From Kamptonema formosum PCC 6407 (GTDB lineage Bacteria; Cyanobacteriota; Cyanobacteriia; Cyanobacteriales; Microcoleaceae), in the NCBI RefSeq assembly GCF_000332155.1, contig NZ_KB235903.1, positions 715,156-779,155 of the forward strand: 64,000 nt of DNA, written 5' to 3'. Positions 1 to 52,125 of the stretch are shown piece by piece. The translations under genes were made by a program, and so were the position numbers. The notes beneath the pieces were generated by a model that was not told the origin of the DNA, searched no databases, and saw only the letters and a list, made by a program, of their open reading frames with translations. The stretch's first letter is position 1, and every line of letters begins with the position of its first letter.

Positions 1-293
1 AGTCTGGTGATATCAAGTTCAGTTAATTAATCATTATTAGGAACACGGACAGGTTTCTGGATCTCTGGTTTAAGCCGGGAGATATTCGCAAACTTGCTCT
101 CGATCCGAATTATATATAATTAACCGGATTTGATATTACGACTTAACTGCTGTTGTTGGTGCTAAAGTAATTAAATAAATTATATCAGTTCGTATTTTAG
201 TAAACACCGTCTAATTAAGGCTGTACTCAGAGTCTCAAATCCATAGCTGAACAGCTTTCTATTTTTTTTTTGGGAAGAGGTACTAGCATTTCG

Positions 294-322
294 AGCTATA
301 GCAACCGTTTTGACGGTTAAGA
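294..322. repeat. Partial copy of a dispersed repeat with a GCTATAGCAACC core
   Basis: gctatagcaaccgttttgacggttaagac resembles the reverse complement of ggtcttgacggttgctatagcaacc at 23569-23593. It also resembles gatacagcaaccgctaagacc near 29028. Confidence 0.4.
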
Positions 323-502
323 CGTTATTAATTGCTGAAACCCTCGCTTTTATTGCTGTCAACATCCCTGTCTTCAGCCTTGAGCTTAAAATCTTACTAT
401 TTGTTGATGAGCGAATATTAATTACCGATCGGTCACTGAGTATTTAAGAGAAATCCCAAATCTAAAAGGAGATCTTGAAACAATTGCTGTATTTAAATAT
501 AC

Positions 503-535
503 AAAGCATCAGAAAATTTCTGATGCTTTTTCTTT
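503..535 (+). terminator. Intrinsic-terminator-like hairpin
   Basis: An 11-bp perfect stem (aaagcatcaga 503-513 / tctgatgcttt 519-529) with a 5-nt loop, followed by a T-rich tail. No obvious upstream gene in the window. Confidence 0.35.
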
Positions 536-713
536 ATATCTGCTTTAGAGATATTAAAAAATAATTAATGAATATTTAATTGTTTGGCATGAACAAAAGA
601 TCATTACTAATAAAGCCGGACAGTGGACAAAAATTTTTCTCAATCGACAAGGTTGTAAAGAACAGAATAGCTTTTATCAATATGGTACGCTGCCTAAAAC
701 CCTATTAAATTCA

Positions 714-1397
714 GTGATGGGCATTTGGCAACAACATCCAGGTGCGGCACGGATGTTAATTTGGTTATTATTTAAAACCAAAATGGGTAAAGAACAGCGT
801 GTCACAGTACCTACATTAATGCGCGTAGCGTATGGTGAGAAAAAATTCAATACTTTATCTTCACAAAAAGATGAACGCAAACGGCTAATGAAAATCTTTG
901 AAAATGATTTAGAAGTTATCAGTTGCTATGGAATAAACCCAGTATTCGATCCCATTACTTATCCACTAGAAATTCAACCCCTATGGGTGAAGCTCAAAAA
1001 TATTCCAGAAGAAGCAGAGGCGGCTTTAGACTTTTGGATTGCAGATGGTAGTAAGAATAATCGCCTAACTGATGTGGCACCTCGTGGTAAGTGGAATCGT
1101 TTAATGAACGCACGAGTATTACATTTTGAAATCCCGCCTGAATGGGAATCTCCCACCAAAATGAAAGTTATTCAGCCTCAAAAAACCAAAGAGAGAAATA
1201 GAACCAAGGTTAAACCATCGGTTGAACTTTCATCTCAACAGATTATTGAGGCAAGGAAGATAAGGCTTTTGAGTCAGAGAGAATTAGCATCATTAATGGG
1301 CAAAAGTCAAAGCTGGATTAGAGATATTGAAAATGGTCGCTTTCAAGTCAAGGGAGAAGACCAAATGTTACTGCGGAAAGTGTTAGGGATGATGTAA
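714..1397 (+). CDS. Hypothetical protein with C-terminal XRE-type helix-turn-helix
   Basis: 227-aa ORF with GTG/ATG start. The C-terminus LSQRELASLMGKSQSWIRDIENGR looks like an HTH_3/XRE motif. The N-terminal part is unrecognised. Confidence 0.5.
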   Translation: MMGIWQQHPGAARMLIWLLFKTKMGKEQRVTVPTLMRVAYGEKKFNTLSSQKDERKRLMKIFENDLEVISCYGINPVFDPITYPLEIQPLWVKLKNIPEEAEAALDFWIADGSKNNRLTDVAPRGKWNRLMNARVLHFEIPPEWESPTKMKVIQPQKTKERNRTKVKPSVELSSQQIIEARKIRLLSQRELASLMGKSQSWIRDIENGRFQVKGEDQMLLRKVLGMM

Positions 1398-2919: not shown

Positions 2920-3009
2920 TGCTTTCCGGGGGGTGAAAAAGCCGTAATCTCCATCTCCTGCTTATATCAGATAGTTGAAAACTAGGTAGTTTGCTTAACC
3001 TGGATAGAA

Positions 3010-3224
3010 TTATTAAATTAATTAAAGATGTACTCAAGCACCAAATGCCTTGATAGGAGAGGGATTCATTTTTTTTTGGGGCTATAGGTACGAGTATTTT
3101 TGGCTATAGGTATGAGTATTTATCAGTGACGTACTCAGTATTTATGTACTCAGCCATAAGTCTCTTTCAGCAAGTATTTCAGACTATTTACGTACCAATT
3201 TTGGGGAAGAAAAAATTGTACTCA
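3010..3224. promoter_or_regulatory. Left arm of the mirror-symmetric motif array in the cysE/nifB divergent spacer
   Basis: GTACTCA occurs at 3030, 3131, 3146 and 3218. The box ggggctataggtacgagtatttttgg lies at 3078-3103, and ttattaaattaattaaagatgtactcaa at 3010-3037. Each has an inverted counterpart in 3617-3840. Confidence 0.45.
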
Positions 3225-3616
3225 CCATCTTTTTAGGACTTACTGGGTCTTTAACCCTGTTGGTTAAGTCGTGCTTTGTCAGAATGACTGTCTAGAAATT
3301 ATTTTTTAAATTTTTGTATATCTAACTACTATTTAAGCTTTTATGGCTTACAGTAAAAGTAGCGAGCATCATTTTTTATGTGGCACTTGAGGCAAATCCC
3401 CTATTATTACTTTTATTTTGTCTGTATCATTAGATACAATCAATAACTTTGGTAAAGAAATCGCCAAAAAAAATCCCAGGTCATAAAAAACTGATATATT
3501 AGATACAGAATTAAATTTAAGAATACCGTCAGCCATCTCTCCAAAAGATCGTCTCGGTTATCCCCCTTCTCAATTGCCCTATCAGATTAAATTTGGGGCA
3601 TCAAATTTATATTTTT

Positions 3617-3840
3617 TGAGTACCCATCAAGCCAGTAGAAAATTTGCTATAAATCTCATCAAACCCATGCGCCAACTGGGTTAGCTTTGAGTACAAAAAT
3701 ACCGCTTCTCGGCTACCTAAATACTTATCGCTTAGACCAAAAATACTCGTACCTATACCCCAAAATTTTTTTTCAAATCTATTTTTCCCTTACAGAGTAA
3801 GGATTACAGGTTTTGAGTACCTTCTTAATTAGTTTAATAA
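3617..3840. promoter_or_regulatory. Right arm of the mirror-symmetric motif array (candidate nifB upstream activating / promoter region)
   Basis: TGAGTAC occurs at 3617, 3688 and 3814. ccaaaaatactcgtacctatacccc at 3737-3761 and ttgagtaccttcttaattagtttaataa at 3813-3840 are reverse complements of left-arm boxes. The arm ends about 270 nt upstream of the nifB ATG. Confidence 0.45.
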
Positions 3841-4111
3841 GTCTTATCCCTAGCCATCTCTGCGGGAGGCAATTGAGTAGCTGCTATAAATTTCATAACG
3901 CCAGATGCTTAACCCGCCAAAGGTAATAGGTAATAGGTATTTAAGTAATTGGTAAATTCAAACAGTACCAAAAGCCAAATAACCGATGGATTCTGGGGGA
4001 AGTTAATGAATGGAATGGAGCCTAATATAGGGCCCAACGGATAAACAAAATAATTCCTGTTTGTTCATATTTCCTATAGCGTTGACGAGTCCACTGAATC
4101 CCATAAATTCA

Positions 4112-19896: not shown

Positions 19897-20002
19897 GACT
19901 TATGCACCTAACCAAAGAAACCGGGTTTTTTGACGAAAATACTTCGTTGTTACCCACCGATGATCTCAAAAACCCGGTTTCTGGAGCCATGAGCGTAAGT
20001 CC
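19897..20002. repeat. Foldback element with AGAAACCGGGTTT inverted termini (copy 1)
   Basis: ggacttatgc...aagaaaccgggtttttt...aaaaacccggtttctgg...gcgtaagtcc. A second copy lies at 24872-24957. Confidence 0.5.
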
Positions 20003-20015
20003 TATTATATAGGTA

Positions 20016-20225
20016 TTAATCAACAGCAATAATTAAATCTGATGCCTTAATTACTGCGTAAGCTTCTTTGCCTTCTACTATTTCTAGATTGGCAGCAGAT
20101 GCTTTTGTGATAATGGCAACTACTTCAAGTTCAGGAGCAATTTCTAGCGTTACTTCAGCATTAACTGCTCCCACCAATACTTGTTTTACTTTAGCTTTGA
20201 GAACGTTACGAGCGCTAATTTTCAT
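20016..20225 (-). CDS. mop: Molybdenum-pterin-binding protein Mop (TOBE domain)
   Basis: 69 aa: MKISARNVLKAKVKQVLVGAVNAEVTLEIAP...AYAVIKASDLIIAV. Confidence 0.8.
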   Translation of the reverse strand: MKISARNVLKAKVKQVLVGAVNAEVTLEIAPELEVVAIITKASAANLEIVEGKEAYAVIKASDLIIAVD

Positions 20226-20978
20226 TTTTCGAGCTTACCTGGTATTTTCATTAATATTGTATCACCCAAATCTATATTCCAATTGTAATTAAATTTACAT
20301 TTGAAGGTGTTGTTTCTACAAGTTGAGCCTGAAGTTTTTGTTTGTTTATAAATATTGTTTGCAATAACATTTATTTACTTCAAATAAATGCTTAATAAAT
20401 AACTTTAAAAACAGAGGCAGTAAAATTTAGTTGAATAATCCACATTAAATTGTCACAAATATTTTCCCGATTACTCCTACCTTGTATCGTTGCAATACTG
20501 CCATAATTAGTCAAACAGTCAAACACTAATCAAACAATTCATTATTGACTTGTTTAAAGCCATATTCACTCAACTTTATTAAGCTATAAAGTTGAGAAAC
20601 TACTACTTGAATCTTACTTTCCAGATTCGTCATAATATACCATTAGCATTTCATAAAAAATTTTTTCAGAGTTGAATTTTGAGAATCATCGACCATTGCT
20701 GTTATTGTGAGAACTAAGTAGATTAGCGGGAAAATACATTAAGTATGTCATTCCGAGTGAAACGTTGACGTAGCCTGCCCGTTAGGGCTTAGCAATCCCA
20801 ACGGCGAGGATAGCTTTACATTCTGTTACATACCAAGATTGCTCTGCACCTATCTACTTAACTAGAACCAAACTTACACATTAATGTGTCAAACTCAGAT
20901 CACCCGAACTCTTCTTAAAATGGGTTTAAGGAATATCTCTGGGTAAGTCCTACATCAAATACTTTGGAGAACAGAATT

Positions 20979-23384
20979 ATGACACCTGTAGAAGTTGAAA
21001 AAACACCAATGACTGAGCAAGAAGTAGAAAAGCTGTGGGAAGCATTTAAAATGTTTGATGCGGACGGTAGCGGTGCTATTTCAGCAGAAGAACTGGGTCA
21101 AGTGATGCGATCCTTGGGACAGAGCCCCAGCGAGACAGAACTGCGGGACATGATTAAAGAAGTAGATGTTGACCTGTCGGGAAGTATCGATTTTGAAGAA
21201 TTTAAAGCGTTAATTGTCTCCCAACAAGGCGATCGCACCAGCCGCCTAAAACTAGCATTCAGCGTCTTTGATGAGGACGGCAGCGGTCAAATCACCGTCA
21301 ACGAGCTGCGTAGTGTGATGAGTCAGTTTGGGCTGACAGATAAAGAACTTAATGAGATAGTACAAGAAGTCGATCATGATGGCGATGCCTCCATTGACTT
21401 TGAAGAGTTCTGTAAACTGGTGCCCGAAGAGTCCGAGATCGCTACAGGTTATCAAGACTCACCCATTCCCCCCACCACTTCACCTCAGCCAACTGCAACT
21501 GATGGGAGTACAACAGCCACCGAAAGCACACCCACGATCGCCAACGAGGTAGAACCCAGCACCACACCCACACCACAGGAAACACTCAGCGAAATAGATG
21601 CAGAGGTAGCAAGACTCACAGAACTACTCGCCAAACACCCACAGAACGAGACAAAGCGCGGTACATCGCGCTTACAGATGCAAATTGGTCTATTTCGCCT
21701 AATCCAGGGAGCCGCCTATCGCTGCTTCCGCGAGAGTTTCTCCGCCAACCACGAAACTCACCTGCGCGTCAGAAATCTACCCTACAGAATCACTGATTTC
21801 GTGCGGTTTGTGAAGACTGCGATCGCGCTTTACAAAGGATTAGGGATCGTCGAACCAGCTTGCAACCCCTTACTGGATGCAGTGGTAGAATCAATTACTA
21901 ATGAGTATGCTCGACTAGAAGACCGGATTAAGAATTGGAAAGCGATCGAAAAAACCCCAGAAATGTTGGCAGAACAAAAAGCCATGTTAGAGGCGCGGGG
22001 TAAATCTGCCACTGTCAAAGAAAAGTTTGCCGCCGGAGTTGAGTTTGCCATCACCATCAAGAAAAAACGTCTCAACTTGCGCGATGTTGCTGAAGGTGTA
22101 CTTGCCATCAATGAGCTCAACCGACTCAGGAAGATGGAACTCAATCAAGAGATTGCTCCAGAAGTAGAGCAATCAGCCGGAGATCCCAAAGATTACCTCA
22201 AAAAGTGGAACCGAGTCCTCCTCTCTGATGCCTCCGAACAAGTCGATGGTGCAATGATGCCAGTAGCTTATTGGTATGAGGAATTTATGCCAAAACTGTT
22301 GGCTGCTTTCAGCGTTAATACCGTCGCCGATATCCAAAGTAATACCGTTCCTGACGAAGCAGCTTTGGACAAGTGGTATCAATCTACTAAGGAGTCAGGA
22401 GAATTTAACGTTTATGGTGCCGATGTTGCAGACGGCTTTTCCAAATGCACTCCCCAACAAAAACTAATGCTTAAACAAGCTTGGCGACTCACTCACAACT
22501 ACTTAAATGGGGTGCAAAAACGGCGGGAACGTCAGGAATTTGGACGCGACTCTGGCGCACTTTCCCATTATGTATCATTCATTGATATATCCCTGGGCCG
22601 CAGCGATATTAAGGATGCTCAGATGCGCGTCAGTTTTCCATACTATATCGGGCCAGCGGTTTGGCGTTTCTTCCACACCAGTGCGGAAATTGTATCTACT
22701 AAAACGCCTGAGAAACAAAAAGCCTTGATAGCCGTTTTCAAGGAGTTTTTTCAACTGTTTGCCACGATGTATCCCTGTCCCTACTGTCGCCATCATCTCA
22801 ATGCCTATGTTGTGCAGAATAAGGAAGTGGAAATGTACCCTGTGGAGTACCTCGTACTCGGCCGCGACGTGAATCTTACTGACTTTAAGGTATCCCTAGA
22901 AGCAAAGCTTTCTACTGTGGTTGATGGCCCTTCTCTGCGCTTATTTTTCTGGAAGTTACACAACACTGTGTCTTCATCTATTGCTCGTTCGGAAGAGTGG
23001 TATCACAAGGATGAAAAAGCTTTTTACACTACTCGCTATTGGCCGAGTCTTGACTCGGAGTTAGCGCGTGCCAAAGCACTCAAACATATCAGCATTTCAA
23101 CCGATCGCATCTATGGTCTTTATGGGATGCTGAAGCCTGCATCGCGGCTTTCGGCTGTGAGAACTACATTGCAAAAGCTTTTGGAAAAAGGCGATATCGA
23201 AGGGATTAAGGCGGCCTGTACGATCGCAGAAGATTATATTAAGGATTTGGAGGAGGCTGCGATCGGCGGAAATTTCCTACAAGATACATATTACTTCGAT
23301 CCTGACCTGGTTGATAAAGCTCCACACTTTACTCCTGATGAAGAACAATTTGCCCGCAGTGGTGTGTTTGTGGAGGTTGTTTAA
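20979..23384 (+). CDS. Fusion protein: calmodulin-like 4x EF-hand + Pro/Thr linker + unknown region + Erv1/ALR-like CxxC sulfhydryl oxidase domain
   Basis: EF loops DADGSGAISAEE, DVDLSGSIDFEE, DEDGSGQITVNE and DHDGDASIDFEE. C-terminal VWRFFHTSAE...FFQLFATMYPCPYCRHHL...FFWKLHNTV matches the Erv/ALR W..H...YPCxxC...W..HN.V pattern. The ATG at 20979 follows ggaga. Confidence 0.8.
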   Translation: MTPVEVEKTPMTEQEVEKLWEAFKMFDADGSGAISAEELGQVMRSLGQSPSETELRDMIKEVDVDLSGSIDFEEFKALIVSQQGDRTSRLKLAFSVFDEDGSGQITVNELRSVMSQFGLTDKELNEIVQEVDHDGDASIDFEEFCKLVPEESEIATGYQDSPIPPTTSPQPTATDGSTTATESTPTIANEVEPSTTPTPQETLSEIDAEVARLTELLAKHPQNETKRGTSRLQMQIGLFRLIQGAAYRCFRESFSANHETHLRVRNLPYRITDFVRFVKTAIALYKGLGIVEPACNPLLDAVVESITNEYARLEDRIKNWKAIEKTPEMLAEQKAMLEARGKSATVKEKFAAGVEFAITIKKKRLNLRDVAEGVLAINELNRLRKMELNQEIAPEVEQSAGDPKDYLKKWNRVLLSDASEQVDGAMMPVAYWYEEFMPKLLAAFSVNTVADIQSNTVPDEAALDKWYQSTKESGEFNVYGADVADGFSKCTPQQKLMLKQAWRLTHNYLNGVQKRRERQEFGRDSGALSHYVSFIDISLGRSDIKDAQMRVSFPYYIGPAVWRFFHTSAEIVSTKTPEKQKALIAVFKEFFQLFATMYPCPYCRHHLNAYVVQNKEVEMYPVEYLVLGRDVNLTDFKVSLEAKLSTVVDGPSLRLFFWKLHNTVSSSIARSEEWYHKDEKAFYTTRYWPSLDSELARAKALKHISISTDRIYGLYGMLKPASRLSAVRTTLQKLLEKGDIEGIKAACTIAEDYIKDLEEAAIGGNFLQDTYYFDPDLVDKAPHFTPDEEQFARSGVFVEVV

Positions 23385-49307: not shown

Positions 49308-49387
49308 ATGTAAAGTTGATTGATTATTATACAAATAAAAAGCTACACTCTAAACTGTGCTAAGTAGTCGGATATAATTAAACTCCG

Positions 49388-49451
49388 GGTGGGCGCTCGC
49401 CGCAAAAAACCTGTAACTCATAGAAGAAGATGGTTGCGGCGAGCGCCCACC
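49388..49451. terminator. Perfect 18-bp GC-rich hairpin between convergent genes
   Basis: ggtgggcgctcgccgcaa (49388-49405) pairs with ttgcggcgagcgcccacc (49434-49451) across a 28-nt loop. It abuts the stop codon of the minus-strand gene at 49452. Confidence 0.5.
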
Positions 49452-50639
49452 TTACAATTTATTGCCAAGGTACTCAACCTTCCAAGATATTTGACGACCT
49501 GAACGACCTGAACGAACAAAACGAAATCCTTCGTATTCAAAGCTGACTGAGTTTTTAGTAATGAACGAAGTAGATACACCAAGCAACTGAGCAATTTGGT
49601 TAGTTGTTAATTCTGATCGTTGAGATGCTGCTTTTTTCAGAGGCTCTAGATGTTCTGGTGGACGATTAACTTCCAGTAAAGTAGATTGAAATTGACTATC
49701 TGAGGAGGATAGGGATTCACAACTGGTACTAGATGAAGCCCGAATTTTAGAGAAGGATTGAGTAAAAGATAAAGCAATTCCAAGATTGGAAACAATCAAA
49801 TAGGCGATAAAACTTGGGGAGGAAAAAGCAACTCGCCCGTATCTTACGATAGGGATCTCGCGATTATTATTGAAACGTCGGTCTGGTTCACCATCACGGC
49901 GAACATATTTCCAAGTTTTCCCAATAACTGTTGCATCACTTGGAAGCGACTCTTGCTCTACATATTCCAAATCTTGCAAGGATACCTGTACTTCATTGTA
50001 AGAAATTGCACTATAAACACCATCTTGAAATACAAAAAAGCGATCGGGAAGTAGATACAGTTTAATGCTTCCTGCATCAACACCCCAAACATCAACGTTA
50101 GTTTTGAGAAGATTGGGATTTTGCTTCCCAATTTTTGCTCGCTGTCGTATGAGTGCTGAGTTAGAGCCAGCATTTCTCTTCCAATCACCGACGGCGACTT
50201 GTGATTTCAATCGCCATGAGCTTTTTGTTGCAGATAGATTGGAAAAAGACGCAATACCGTCATAAAATTTCTTCTCTGAATAGTCATCAGAAAACTCATA
50301 AAAAAGTGGCGTTGTCTTGCGTTTAACATCTGCCTTGTAGACTACATAAGTAACAACTGCTAAAATGATAGATAATGGAACGAAAACAAACAGTAGAATT
50401 AATGTGGCAATTCCACAGTAGATAGAATAGTACGGACTTTTAACTCTTTTGTTAATTTGATCAATAATTTCTGCTGCTGACCTATCTAAAATTACTTCCT
50501 CGTAATCTTCTGAATCTTCATGTGTAGAGCCATAAGCTCTTTCAGGAGCTTGATAAGTCTTCTGTTGATATGTAGTACCTTTTTTACCAACTTTAATTAC
50601 AGTATCTGGAACCTGCTGCTTTTTTTTAGATGAAGTCAT
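49452..50639 (-). CDS. Unknown membrane-anchored protein with C-terminal HTH-like segment
   Basis: TM segment YCGIATLILLFVFVPLSIILAVVTYVVY. The central domain is unrecognised. C-terminal LTTNQIAQLLGVSTSFI looks like an excisionase/MerR-type HTH. Confidence 0.5.
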   Translation of the reverse strand: MTSSKKKQQVPDTVIKVGKKGTTYQQKTYQAPERAYGSTHEDSEDYEEVILDRSAAEIIDQINKRVKSPYYSIYCGIATLILLFVFVPLSIILAVVTYVVYKADVKRKTTPLFYEFSDDYSEKKFYDGIASFSNLSATKSSWRLKSQVAVGDWKRNAGSNSALIRQRAKIGKQNPNLLKTNVDVWGVDAGSIKLYLLPDRFFVFQDGVYSAISYNEVQVSLQDLEYVEQESLPSDATVIGKTWKYVRRDGEPDRRFNNNREIPIVRYGRVAFSSPSFIAYLIVSNLGIALSFTQSFSKIRASSSTSCESLSSSDSQFQSTLLEVNRPPEHLEPLKKAASQRSELTTNQIAQLLGVSTSFITKNSVSFEYEGFRFVRSGRSGRQISWKVEYLGNKL

Positions 50640-50649
50640 TGTAATATAG

Positions 50650-51369
50650 TTAGTCCTTATGGGTTGGAATTGATTTATTCAAATGAGTGAAGTAGTGTTG
50701 GCTTCCTAGAACAATACCTAACGACAACATTACGATGAATATGAAACCAACAATCATGAACTTGGATTTTGAAAAGTTGTCAGCTTTGCGTGACTTTTCT
50801 GTAGACTTAGGTATGAAGTTACTAGGTGATAAAACTTTGTAAAGACGACTTGAAAATAAATGCAATTCATCCTGAGAAGTTAGTTTATAAATTCTATTAG
50901 ATTCTAAAATTTTTGAATTTTTAACAGCTTCGATCAATTTAGGATCGGGGGAACTTGGACGAAAATTGTCCCACTGATATTCACAGCTCTCATAGAATAA
51001 TTGAAATTCCGCAACTTTGAAAAATCTAGCTTCGTCTTTGTCGGCAATTACAAGATACTCAGCTTCATTTATACGTCCTTTTTTGAATAATCGATTAATG
51101 TAATAAATCGCCTGGGCAATAACCTTTGCTGCAACCTCTATATCGCCAAGTTTGACTGAATACTTGAATTCAAATAGAACCTTATTGACCACTAAATCAT
51201 GTCTTTCCTGAGTCTTAACTGGTAGAGAAAACTCTCTGATATAAGCAGCCTTAACTTCTTCTTCATTGGTTGCACTCTGTAGAGCCTCAATAAAACTAAA
51301 CTCCTGAGCTTCTGACCAGAGCTTTCCTTGTTGATTTGTTCGCTTTGCTTGCTCTTCCCACGCCCCCAT
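50650..51369 (-). CDS. Unknown protein with possible PD-(D/E)xK motif and C-terminal TM anchor
   Basis: RHDLVVNKVLFEFKYS fits a D-x9-ExK arrangement. C-terminal TM segment FMIVGFIFIVMLSLGIVLG. It lies 10 nt upstream of the next gene. Confidence 0.5.
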   Translation of the reverse strand: MGAWEEQAKRTNQQGKLWSEAQEFSFIEALQSATNEEEVKAAYIREFSLPVKTQERHDLVVNKVLFEFKYSVKLGDIEVAAKVIAQAIYYINRLFKKGRINEAEYLVIADKDEARFFKVAEFQLFYESCEYQWDNFRPSSPDPKLIEAVKNSKILESNRIYKLTSQDELHLFSSRLYKVLSPSNFIPKSTEKSRKADNFSKSKFMIVGFIFIVMLSLGIVLGSQHYFTHLNKSIPTHKD

Positions 51370-51686
51370 AAAGAAAATTCCTAGCTGTAAAGCTTTATCA
51401 ATGGTGACACTATCCTAACTTACCGCACCCATACCCTCAAGTTCAACGTGCCAACTGAGGGTGAAAAAACTTAACTATTAATTTAATTGTGCCGCATACT
51501 CAGCAAGCAATCAAGGAATTATCGAAAATTCATTTCCCTTATCCTGTAGTTAGGCCTGATCTTAAAGAGAAGGCTACCGCGCCCTTGGCTGTTCCCCTAC
51601 AACTCAAAACTCCTTCCCTTTACCATCTTGACTACTCTAGGGCTAGCGTGGACTAGACTGGGTATGTTGATTTTGGTTAAAATATC

Positions 51687-52049: not shown

Positions 52050-52125
52050 GATTAGCAATCAGCAATTAGCCATTAGCCATTAGCAATTAGCTATTAGCCA
52101 TTAGCAATTGTTGATTAGCTAACAT
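52050..52125. repeat. AATTAGC-type heptamer repeat that runs into the 3' end of cpcF
   Basis: gattagcaatcagcaattagccattagccattagcaattagctattagccattagcaattgttgattagctaacat. The last 12 codons of cpcF (MLANQQLLMANS) are encoded by it. Confidence 0.7.

Follow-up and report, generated by a model that had tools for sequence, protein, structure and literature searches.

Two genes of Kamptonema formosum PCC 6407, here called A and B, lie on the minus strand between a two-component cluster and cpc-type genes. The TAA stop of A is separated from the ATG of B by exactly 10 nt, CTATATTACA. An earlier sequence-only reading of this DNA had described the same arrangement, which is confirmed here, and had taken the pair to be orphans, suspecting a nuclease with a membrane protein of the kind found in defence islands. 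The question raised by the locus is what such a pair might do, and how it came to reside among genes for signalling and light harvesting. Throughout, ‘the window’ refers to the whole 64,000-nucleotide stretch of contig NZ_KB235903.1 that was analysed; the features of interest are collected in Table 1.

The A-B cassette and its signals

On one side the cassette is flanked by genes for a PAS/GAF histidine kinase and two response-regulator/HisKA proteins. On the other side there follow, in order, a divergent DUF2103 gene, PBS-lyase HEAT-repeat genes (cpcF/E-like), a CpcD gene and a phycobilisome-linker gene (cpcC-like). No Rfam families or tRNA genes were found near the cassette. Homologues of A and B align with both N-termini from residue 1, and the start codons are therefore correct. 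A and B are real genes and both are under purifying selection, dN/dS being 0.07-0.22 for A and 0.13-0.21 for B.

Table 1. Coordinates of the A-B cassette and its features (positions in the window)
Feature	Position	Strand	Basis and remarks
Accessory segment (terminator hairpin, B, A, promoter region)	49336..51647		blastn against sister Kamptonema assemblies
Inverted repeat, perfect 18-nt, GC-rich, 28-nt loop	49388..49451		directly after the B stop codon
Gene B	49452-50639	minus	395 aa ORF; AF2 pLDDT 83; predicted membrane protein, core and C-terminal winged helix
B residues 329-390, predicted C-terminal winged helix-turn-helix	49470..49655	minus	pI 9.7; preceded by disordered Ser-rich linker 302-328
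B residues 110-301, conserved core	49737..50312	minus	motifs DWKRNAG, LPD, G-x-PDRRFNNN; mostly beta, C-terminal helix
B residues 68-101, 34-residue uncharged block with central Pro	50337..50438	minus	Kyte-Doolittle and uncharged-run analysis
B residues 13-30, Lys-rich beta-hairpin	50550..50603	minus	AF2 strands 13-18 and 21-30; aligns with last DUF4236 hairpin in distant relatives
Gene A	50650-51369	minus	239 aa ORF; AF2 pLDDT 82; predicted tail-anchored PD-(D/E)xK nuclease
A residues 204-223, C-terminal TM anchor	50701..50760	minus	uncharged hydrophobic segment; AF2 helix 201-232
A residues 21-181, nuclease domain	50827..51309	minus	homologous to N-terminal domain of type IIG-like nuclease-methyltransferase fusions
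A catalytic motif D58-x8-E67-F-K69 (DLVVNKVLFEFK)	51163..51198	minus	invariant in 30 sequences
Putative cassette promoter TTGAGG (51440-51435), N17, TAGGAT (51417-51412)	51412..51440	minus	upstream conservation

The impression that the genes are AT-richer than their neighbours was borne out by measurement. The cassette has a GC content of 37.1 % compared with 42.8 % for the window, and equally low values occur in only 4.8 % of windows of the same size. Among the 34 long ORFs of the window, A has the lowest GC and B the lowest GC3 (0.263). The AT-richness is thus real, yet modest.

Approximately 110 nt 5' of the A ATG are conserved in cyanobacterial loci whose flanks are unrelated. The hexamers of the putative promoter are kept, or lie nearer to the consensus, elsewhere (TATAAT in the loci L016 and L017), and an SD-like AGGA is located upstream of A at about 51383-51380. 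A scan for consensus promoters and terminators gave nothing above shuffle expectation in the window; it missed the conserved putative promoter because only 8 of the 12 positions match. At the other end of the cassette, the perfect inverted repeat is the only one of its kind in the window, with 0.04 expected by chance, and lies inside the variable segment described below; the 120 nt after the B stop have a minimum free energy of -50.6 kcal/mol. This repeat, placed between the convergent B and histidine-kinase genes, probably serves as the terminator for B.

A strain-variable slot

In sister Kamptonema assemblies, the sequences flanking the cassette are 97.4-98.6 % identical by blastn. Homology ends at 49335 (compared with L025) or 49362 (compared with L027 and L028) and restarts at 51648, the interior being non-homologous. 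A and B occupy the slot in L026 and L029. In L025 it holds full-length HEC-04 (E 7e-215), and in L027 and L028 a membrane protein of 749/788 aa that matches PDC-M09A and BnzA weakly. HEC-04 is a validated anti-phage ABC-ATPase-TOPRIM protein, for which apparent toxicity upon induction was reported in the validating study (bioRxiv 10.1101/2024.01.29.577857). A defence hotspot is marked by conserved flanks around cargo that varies between non-homologous alternatives, a recognised defence gene among them, and the slot is a strain-variable hotspot of this kind. No target-site duplications or direct repeats were found at the Kamptonema junctions.

The slot aside, the immediate neighbours are housekeeping genes (two-component, phycobilisome), unlike those of a classical multi-system defence island. 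Nevertheless, the suspicion of a defence island gains independent support, because the slot is strain-variable and carries HEC-04 in a sister strain; the comparison with sister strains proposed in the sequence-only reading thus bore out variable presence between flanks of about 98 % identity. The strict co-conservation of the pair, set out below, points the same way, and the defence function itself is inferred. Neither protein matches a housekeeping family, the genes are conserved together and their composition departs from the average, in each case the opposite of what had been named beforehand as speaking against the idea.

Gene A encodes a predicted membrane-tethered nuclease

A proved to be no orphan, as 57 protein clusters match it, and every one that carries an organism name is cyanobacterial. 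Nothing significant was obtained for A or B in Pfam or NCBIfam. Relationships came instead from profile comparison. Residues 21-181 of A align with a family of proteins of ~800 aa, with an hhalign E of 6.5e-45 and 34 % identity. This family, itself unannotated, combines a nuclease with an N6-adenine-methyltransferase bearing FxTP, DMAAGTGNL and NPPF/Y motifs, and its profile matches M.BseCI, HsdM and the Pfam families N6_Mtase and Eco57I.

The D...ExK motif proposed earlier, RHDLVVNKVLFEFK, is present and has held up. D58, E67 and K69 are invariant across 30 homologues, as are E36-E38, K40 and Q86. In the 28-member type IIG-like family the aligned catalytic columns, D40, E49 and K51, are likewise invariant. 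A has the alpha-beta-beta-beta-alpha-beta core fold of the PD-(D/E)xK superfamily, and its family-conserved D...(D/E)-x-K motif falls on the second and third core strands. Judged by its sequence, A is a member of this superfamily, and cleavage activity is predicted. One relative of A has an added TIR domain. A-like domains in phages amount to weak single-domain matches in three Vibrio phages, and a search for A on plasmids gave no match.

The C-terminal TM helix reported earlier also stands: all 27 full-length cyanobacterial homologues of the alignment have a hydrophobic segment of 18-25 uncharged residues, the sequence of which drifts freely. The methyltransferase-fused relative P0057 lacks a TM anchor of this type. 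The linker that precedes the segment in A (residues 182-203) is Lys/Arg-rich, with a pI of 10.2, and by the positive-inside rule the nuclease is therefore predicted to be cytoplasmic.

Type IIG/IIL restriction enzymes (BpuSI, 3s1s; DrdV, 7lo5; the MmeI family) have the same E...D...ExK...Q columns as A, which is homologous to their cleavage domain by way of the ~800-aa family; solved type IIG enzymes themselves give no detectable sequence match to A. The architectures differ. Type IIG/IIL enzymes carry nuclease, gamma-class N6-adenine methyltransferase and target recognition in one chain, whereas A consists of nuclease, linker and TM segment only, and the type IIG-like fusions lack the TM anchor in which A ends. 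Furthermore, A has an obligate partner in B, a protein unlike any part of the ~800-aa fusion proteins. A split type IIG enzyme, with B as the detached methyltransferase/TRD half, was considered and rejected (hhalign probability 0.1 %), and methyltransferase families in Pfam, NCBIfam and PADLOC match neither protein; nor does a methyltransferase gene adjoin A. The evidence goes most of the way to establishing that the soluble domain of A is descended from, or co-ancestral with, the cleavage domain at the N-terminus of single-chain type IIG-like restriction-modification enzymes, and that the methyltransferase and specificity half has been lost, with a C-terminal TM anchor at the end.

Gene B encodes a predicted winged-helix membrane protein

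B is matched by 85 protein clusters and is no more an orphan than A. Of the features first ascribed to it, the Lys-rich N-terminus, the membrane block and the helix-turn-helix have stood, the last as a predicted winged helix; the single TM helix is less likely, and the excisionase-like character is not specifically supported. The C-terminal domain is predicted to be a generic winged helix. Two AF2 helices, 71-85 and 87-108, lie over the hydrophobic block, and all relatives of B have either an uncharged block of 34-43 residues or two segments of ~20 residues. Because of the central Pro and the two segments of the relatives, a helical hairpin is probably the membrane anchor of B, rather than a single TM helix. 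The topology is nonetheless uncertain, since a block of 34 residues is short for two full TM helices.

The core has no recognisable known fold, only weak PH-like fold matches being obtained. Its relatives are found among proteins containing DUF4236 (PF14020). Searches of B against these proteins with phmmer gave E values of 1e-46 to 1e-23 over 40-79 % of B, with invariant core columns. The PF14020 domain itself is not matched by B of the window at E<=1, and is matched by 12 distant relatives (best E 4.9e-17). DUF4236 proteins and B have in common the two-helix membrane hairpin and the core, at 30-39 % identity, together with the last DUF4236 beta-hairpin. They differ at the C-terminus, where DUF4236 proteins have J-domain, zinc-ribbon or SH3 modules and B has a winged helix in place of the J domain or zinc ribbon. 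J domains are borne at the C-terminus by distant relatives of B and must be cytoplasmic. DUF4236 proteins are not known to have a function, and the single literature hit on them was apparently incidental.

Like B, DUF4236 proteins occur in accessory or mobile DNA. Plasmid records of B relatives number 36, of which 16 are predicted to be conjugative, and B relatives also occur in a cyanophage. Genes adjoining those for B relatives encode TIR, HxsD/radical-SAM, SLFN-like helicase, relaxase and T4SS-coupling proteins. In phages the B core gives weak single-domain matches in two Microcystis phages, and in PHROGs B matches one unannotated family only.

Pairing and mobility of the cassette

The 12 distinct loci that were found all have B immediately after A, even where B is only ~25 % identical; the pairing is obligate. 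No A-like gene was found beside distant B-like genes, indicating that the pairing is specific to the winged-helix clade, the only one among DUF4236-core proteins with an A-like neighbour. A contig scan with A alone, seeded with exact peptides, yielded 5 loci only and is not an estimate of prevalence. The family has few members, and those with an organism name are all from cyanobacteria.

The neighbours of the pair differ from genome to genome, and no gene is conserved beside it in loci with annotated neighbours. Identity to the window proteins does not follow taxonomy. For B it is 81 % in a Nostoc copy and 52 % in Heteroscytonema, another Nostocales genome; A is 70 % identical in Nostoc sp. 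NZL and 46 % in Nostoc cf. edaphicum. These identities, the differing neighbours and the low GC indicate that the cassette is mobile or accessory. The dS between the cassette and that of Kovacikia is only 0.7-0.84. Taken together, it has largely been shown that A and B form an operon complete in itself, which moves horizontally and brings its own conserved putative promoter.

The cassette is accompanied by no integrase or transposase. A 9-10-nt inverted repeat (GTTAGGTTGC / GCAACCTAAC) flanks it in the loci L013, L015 and L018; 8 of the 11 loci examined lack this repeat, as does the window, and it is significant compared with shuffles in one locus only. A mobile element with terminal inverted repeats was accordingly rejected, the repeats occurring in 3 loci only and none at the Kamptonema junctions.

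Comparison with known defence systems

The scan for known defence systems suggested in the sequence-only reading returned none for A or B: PADLOC-DB v2.0.0, with catalogue coverage up to 2023, gave zero families for either protein at E<=1. A functional parallel may be drawn with SNIPE (PD-lambda-1), a nuclease that is bound to the membrane and cleaves the DNA of a phage as it is injected. SNIPE is a single polypeptide comprising an N-terminal TM segment, DUF4041 and a GIY-YIG nuclease; its homologues are targeted to the membrane by one or two TM segments or by PH-like domains, and infected cells survive and go on dividing (PMC13190303). By analogy, A-B would resemble SNIPE in having a nuclease without a methylase, a constitutive membrane anchor, a separate DNA-binding module and a self DNA spared by localization. 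The PH-like domains of SNIPE homologues may be compared with the weak PH-like fold matches of the B core. In contrast to the single chain of SNIPE, however, there are two proteins here, a C-terminally anchored PD-(D/E)xK nuclease and a partner whose winged helix would be the DNA-binding module. SNIPE has no sequence or fold relationship with A or B. DUF4041 has no Pfam match in either, and the one trace of GIY-YIG, SegE_GIY-YIG at E 0.51, is at chance level.

In the Shield system, ShdA is a membrane-bound RmuC-domain nuclease with an N-terminal anchor; without this anchor ShdA is apparently genotoxic, and accessory partner genes modulate it (PMC10270631). A differs in its C-terminal anchor and type IIG-like domain, and the Shield partners are unrelated to B. 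Neither RmuC (Pfam) nor ShdA (PADLOC) has a match in A or B. Kiwa (KwaA/KwaB) and Zorya deploy membrane-embedded sensors with DNA-binding or nuclease effectors at the site of phage entry (PMC12904381). The theme in common with A-B is that of a membrane component and a DNA-targeting component. There is no homology to A or B, the PADLOC models being silent; in contrast to those systems, both A and B are predicted to be membrane-anchored, with no motor and no tetraspanin-like sensor.

A working model and its alternatives

A predicted restriction-derived membrane nuclease, a putative DNA-binding partner and a slot that holds HEC-04 in a sister strain together make it probable that A-B is an anti-phage or anti-plasmid system not yet described. 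The reading that we favour, and can offer only tentatively, is that A-B is a mobile, methylation-independent, membrane-localized nuclease defence module, analogous but unrelated to SNIPE and Shield. According to the model, the soluble parts of A and B would both lie on the cytoplasmic side, at the inner face of a membrane, which in cyanobacteria may be the thylakoid or the plasma membrane, and there A would cleave foreign DNA as it enters the cell, whether by phage genome injection or by conjugative transfer. B may act as the sensor and as the DNA-binding subunit that targets or licenses A; the sensor role is a guess, since the B core has no recognisable fold. With no cognate methyltransferase, protection of the chromosome would come from spatial sequestration and auto-inhibition of A at the membrane, not from methylation. 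Sparing of self DNA through location has been shown experimentally for SNIPE (PMC13190303) and proposed for Shield (PMC10270631).

A bolder version of this model, which we regard as rather doubtful, is that A-B represents a new type of restriction. A tail-anchored, type IIG-derived nuclease that has shed its methyltransferase would act with a hairpin-anchored winged-helix partner, telling self from non-self by location and destroying DNA as it crosses the membrane. It would be an independent, two-protein reinvention of SNIPE, so far in cyanobacteria.

It is also conceivable, if unlikely, that the pair works by abortive infection in the manner of a toxin-antitoxin system. A would then be a toxic nuclease and B its membrane inhibitor and autoregulator, with the winged helix repressing the promoter; a signal of infection or stress sensed by B would free or activate A to cut both host and foreign DNA, and the cell would be killed or arrested. 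A winged-helix protein such as B could equally be an autoregulator or an antitoxin, and such a scheme would suit the tight operon with its own conserved putative promoter, the lack of a methyltransferase guarding self DNA, and the patchy, mobile distribution, with toxin-antitoxin and IS genes often close by in other genomes. The apparent toxicity of the alternative cargo HEC-04 on induction points in the same direction. However, both membrane anchors are kept family-wide although classical type II pairs have no need of them, B with its 395 aa is much larger than typical antitoxins, and the B core family is widespread without an A-like partner. Nothing here separates direct from abortive defence.

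EndA and NucA, the latter with its inhibitor Nin, are membrane nucleases that cut incoming DNA in natural transformation. A membrane-anchored nuclease with a second protein encoded downstream might do likewise, or might be a nuclease coupled to a tethered regulator and acting on host DNA. Such a role in host DNA processing is very unlikely, given that the slot is strain-variable with unrelated cargo in sister strains, that the cyanobacterial distribution is sporadic and phylogenetically incongruent, and that the GC content is low; the closest relatives of A are restriction-modification fusions and a TIR fusion, and no competence or pilus genes occur near any locus. Least probable of all is a selfish cassette driving its own spread through homing-like or transposition-like cleavage, for although PD-(D/E)xK nucleases act as homing endonucleases and as Tn7 TnsA, and promoter, A and B travel as an exact unit into unrelated sites, bracketed at three loci by the inverted repeat, that repeat is missing from the window and most loci and weak against shuffles in all but one, the junctions and gene content lack the duplications, direct repeats, integrase or transposase of such elements, and the conserved anchoring of both proteins fits poorly with chromosomal target sites.

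If the favoured mechanism, a tethered nuclease acting at the membrane, holds, spatial discrimination between self and non-self by such nucleases would have evolved more than once, and a restriction-modification cleavage domain stripped of its methyltransferase would represent an evolutionary route to methylation-independent immunity. It would also provide a defence system native to filamentous cyanobacteria, and a first function for the B-core/DUF4236 family, which is found on plasmids, conjugative elements and phages in several phyla. The RR-HK|DUF2103 locus, for its part, is a clean, small hotspot with at least three alternative cargos, which can be mined for candidate systems.

Genomic setting of the A-B cassette

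The minus-strand ORFs of A, a tail-anchored PD-(D/E)xK nuclease protein, and B, a predicted membrane protein with a probable C-terminal winged helix, lie exactly where the sequence-only reading had placed them (see table), separated by 10 nt (CTATATTACA). They are flanked on one side by genes for a PAS/GAF histidine kinase and two receiver/HisKA proteins and on the other by a divergent DUF2103 gene, followed by PBS-lyase HEAT-repeat genes (cpcF/E-like), a CpcD gene and a phycobilisome-linker gene (cpcC-like). The AT-richness that had been judged by eye is genuine though modest: the GC content is 37.1 % in the cassette and 42.8 % in the window, and 4.8 % of same-size windows (SD 3.5 %) are as low. 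Among 34 long ORFs, A has the lowest GC and B the lowest GC3. Both genes are under purifying selection (dN/dS 0.07-0.22 in five orthologous pairs). A Kamptonema genome, GCA_000180455.1 (NCBI assembly), is 100 % identical to the window across the cassette region.

A perfect GC-rich inverted repeat (GGTGGGCGCTCGCCGCAA / TTGCGGCGAGCGCCCACC) directly follows the stop codon of B, separating B from the convergently oriented kinase gene. It occurs once in the window, inside the strain-variable segment, and unrelated hairpins occupy the same place in other loci; it probably serves to terminate B transcription. Elsewhere in the window, three 1-kb bins with AT content at the level of the cassette or above may be further accessory insertions.

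Coordinates of the features discussed (window positions unless a locus is named)
Feature	Position	Strand	Size or content
A, ORF	50650-51369	minus	239 aa
B, ORF	49452-50639	minus	395 aa
Inverted repeat	49388-49451		18 nt, 28-nt loop
Candidate promoter	51440-51412		TTGAGG-N17-TAGGAT
Strain-variable slot	~49336/49363 to 51647
Tandem repeat	52051-52100		3 copies of a 14-nt unit
AT-rich bin	20001-21000		GC 0.330
AT-rich bin	1-1000		GC 0.344
AT-rich bin	3001-4000		GC 0.346
Slot cargo of L025	L025:4178-5701		one 507-aa gene
Second variable site	L025:7049-8993		498-aa kinase, 47-aa ORF
Surroundings of P0057	L006:10001-13498		P0057 (366 aa), 498-aa ORF, NERD protein
QXN68084.1	L021:3452-4525		357 aa

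A strain-variable slot

Sister Kamptonema loci were chosen as assemblies encoding an identical DUF2103 flank protein, and five were informative. Their flanks are 97.4-98.6 % identical to the window, whereas the segment between them, the slot, differs completely. A and B occupy it in L026, which equals the window, and in L029 (96.7 % nucleotide identity). In L025 (GCA_053572255.1) the cargo is a single gene, a full-length match to the PADLOC model HEC-04 (E 7e-215), an ABC-ATPase-TOPRIM protein shown by experiment to act against phages and to depend on its active site for this (bioRxiv 10.1101/2024.01.29.577857). L027 and L028 carry a protein of 788 or 749 aa whose N-terminus contains RR and whose membrane region is rich in Gly and Ala; it has only weak matches, to PDC-M09A and BnzA, and may represent another uncharacterised candidate system. 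Direct repeats were looked for at the slot junctions of the Kamptonema assemblies and none was found. The slot is a strain-variable hotspot. The comparison of presence and absence in close strains, called for by the sequence-only reading, favours an accessory, defence-type insertion, with alternative cargos, HEC-04 among them, between near-identical flanks.

A second strain-variable site lies only ~1 kb from the slot. In L025, an ETR1_N/HisKA/HATPase histidine kinase gene and a small ORF separate two HEAT-repeat lyase genes (cpcF/E-like) that lie side by side in the window, on either side of the gap between 52716 and 52869. In the window, the stop of the first of these lyase genes is closely followed by tandem ATTAGCA/ATTAGCC heptamers that look like a cyanobacterial short tandem repeat; a related stretch is found, inverted, in the L025 cargo segment.

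Origin and anchoring of A

Curated families (Pfam, NCBIfam, PADLOC) gave no match to A. Thirty homologs share invariant E36-E38, K40, D58, E67, K69 and Q86, together with the motifs ADKDEA (109-114) and PSSPDP (138-143). The comparison list for A is headed by BpuSI (type IIG, 7.9), DrdV (type IIL, 7.9) and EcoR124I HsdR (6.1), with many more PD-(D/E)xK proteins below. A has a nuclease fold and a conserved catalytic motif, from which its activity is predicted, and by sequence comparison it is homologous to R-M cleavage domains.

When 1.84 billion representatives were searched exhaustively with a profile, 319 relatives emerged, many of them ~800-aa proteins with an A-like domain at the extreme N-terminus. 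These are recognised as nuclease-methyltransferase fusions by their GEFFTP, WDMAAGTGNL and INPPFAT motifs, by the match of the family profile to M.BseCI and type I HsdM subunits (PDB), and by matches of individual members to Pfam N6_Mtase or Eco57I; the family carries no annotation in Pfam, in NCBIfam or at source. Residues 21-181 of A align to residues 3-168 of the family in profile-profile comparison (probability 100 %, E 6.5e-45). A is therefore a cleavage domain standing on its own, of the kind found in this divergent, unannotated type IIG-like R-M family. By descent it groups with type IIG-like cleavage domains, but it departs from the defining architecture of those enzymes in having neither methyltransferase nor target-recognition part (TRD). 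Among the relatives, P0178 (1068 aa, metagenome) is a single polypeptide comprising an N-terminal TIR domain, an A-like nuclease and an N6-methyltransferase. P0057 overlaps a 498-aa ORF, with which it possibly forms a frameshifted fusion enzyme; a NERD protein comes next.

Where the fusions have the methyltransferase, A carries a linker rich in Lys and Arg and then one hydrophobic helix (204-223). All 27 full-length homologs from cyanobacteria keep this segment despite free drift of its sequence, and the methyltransferase-fused relative P0057 lacks it. The positive-inside rule suggests that the nuclease domain faces the cytoplasm. The cassette contains no methyltransferase.

Architecture of B

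B begins with a Lys-rich beta-hairpin matching the final DUF4236 hairpin in alignment, followed by a 34-residue uncharged block with a proline at its centre, a conserved core (110-301; motifs DWKRNAG, LPD and G-x-PDRRFNNN), a Ser-rich disordered linker and a probable winged helix of basic character (wHTH). Relatives have either an uncharged block of 34-43 residues or two segments of ~20 residues, a pattern indicating that the hydrophobic region is probably a helical hairpin, which would put both ends of B on one side of the membrane. As the J domain at the C-terminus of distant relatives has to be cytoplasmic, the core and wHTH of B are probably cytoplasmic too. Hydrophobic anchors are conserved on both A and B, and membrane localisation is predicted.

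The wHTH adopts winged-helix topology in the AF2 model, gives sub-threshold HTH matches in 19/38 family members and is the best-preserved region of a very divergent ortholog. B belongs to an uncharacterised family sharing a DUF4236-associated core, on which the literature search yielded nothing but one apparently incidental mention. A simple split type IIG enzyme was considered for the pair and rejected, since B does not resemble the methyltransferase/TRD portion of the type IIG-like proteins.

Pairing and spread

In each of the 12 distinct loci recovered, B comes immediately after A, 8-50 nt downstream. The loci are from Kamptonema, Kovacikia, Leptolyngbyaceae, Coleofasciculaceae, Spirulina, Scytonema, Heteroscytonema and a number of metagenome-derived genomes, and in one of them B is only ~25 % identical. 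The neighbours are different in every genome and mostly housekeeping, with occasional IS and TA genes. The pairing is obligate and the cassette mobile. Across otherwise unrelated loci ~110 nt upstream of A are conserved; they include a plausible promoter (see table), whose hexamers are kept in other loci or lie closer to consensus there.

B from Hydrococcus, Kovacikia and one Nostoc is 81-83 % identical to the Kamptonema protein, and that of Heteroscytonema, another Nostocales genome, 52 %; A is 70 % identical in Nostoc sp. NZL and 46 % in Nostoc cf. edaphicum. Because identity does not track taxonomy and cassette dS against Kovacikia is only 0.7-0.84, A and B appear to have spread by horizontal transfer.

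In L013, L015 and L018, the cassette is framed by an inverted repeat of 9-10 nt (GTTAGGTTGC / GCAACCTAAC), about -105 nt from the A ATG and +16 to +23 nt past the B stop. It is missing from the window and most other loci and is significant against shuffles only in L013 (4/200); it could represent either an operator or what is left of cassette termini. In two unrelated genomes (L019, L020), an MMR_HSR1/DUF697 GTPase gene and a DUF433 (antitoxin-like) gene lie within ~1-2 kb of the pair on opposite sides, which could reflect chance or a relic of shared context.

Proposed function

It is tentatively proposed that A and B lie on the cytoplasmic face of a membrane, where B, as sensor and/or DNA binder, would license A to cleave incoming foreign DNA, and that the chromosome would be protected through membrane sequestration, not methylation. 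The sequestration mechanism is suggested by precedent. SNIPE, a TM-DUF4041-GIY-YIG protein, cuts phage DNA during injection, and without its TM domain becomes nucleoid-associated and toxic (PMC13190303); Shield is a membrane-bound RmuC nuclease (PMC10270631). Both have been reviewed together with Zorya and Kiwa (PMC12904381). The pair is alike in concept to SNIPE and Shield, but has none of the membership features of either family.

An abortive-infection or TA-like variant, in which B would inhibit A and act as an autoregulator, is a rather unlikely alternative to cleavage of incoming DNA licensed by B. A host DNA-uptake or other housekeeping role is highly improbable, and a selfish homing-like cassette slightly more so.

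No earlier account of the pair was found in the libraries and literature searched, with PADLOC-DB v2.0.0 as the defence catalogue. The pair is a small, testable candidate for membrane-tethered nuclease immunity or an R-M-derived nuclease system.

Distant relatives of B

No A-like neighbour was found beside distant B-like genes. Some of these genes lie on plasmids (36 records, 16 predicted conjugative), and some lie beside genes encoding TIR, HxsD/radical-SAM, SLFN-like helicase and relaxase proteins. One is carried by Microcystis phage Mea-Yong924-1 directly after the large terminase gene. The C-terminal half of its product, QXN68084.1, contains the B core domain (hhalign 99.7 %, residues 162-352) without the wHTH, and the protein may represent the B family in phage form, as a counterpart or a decoy.
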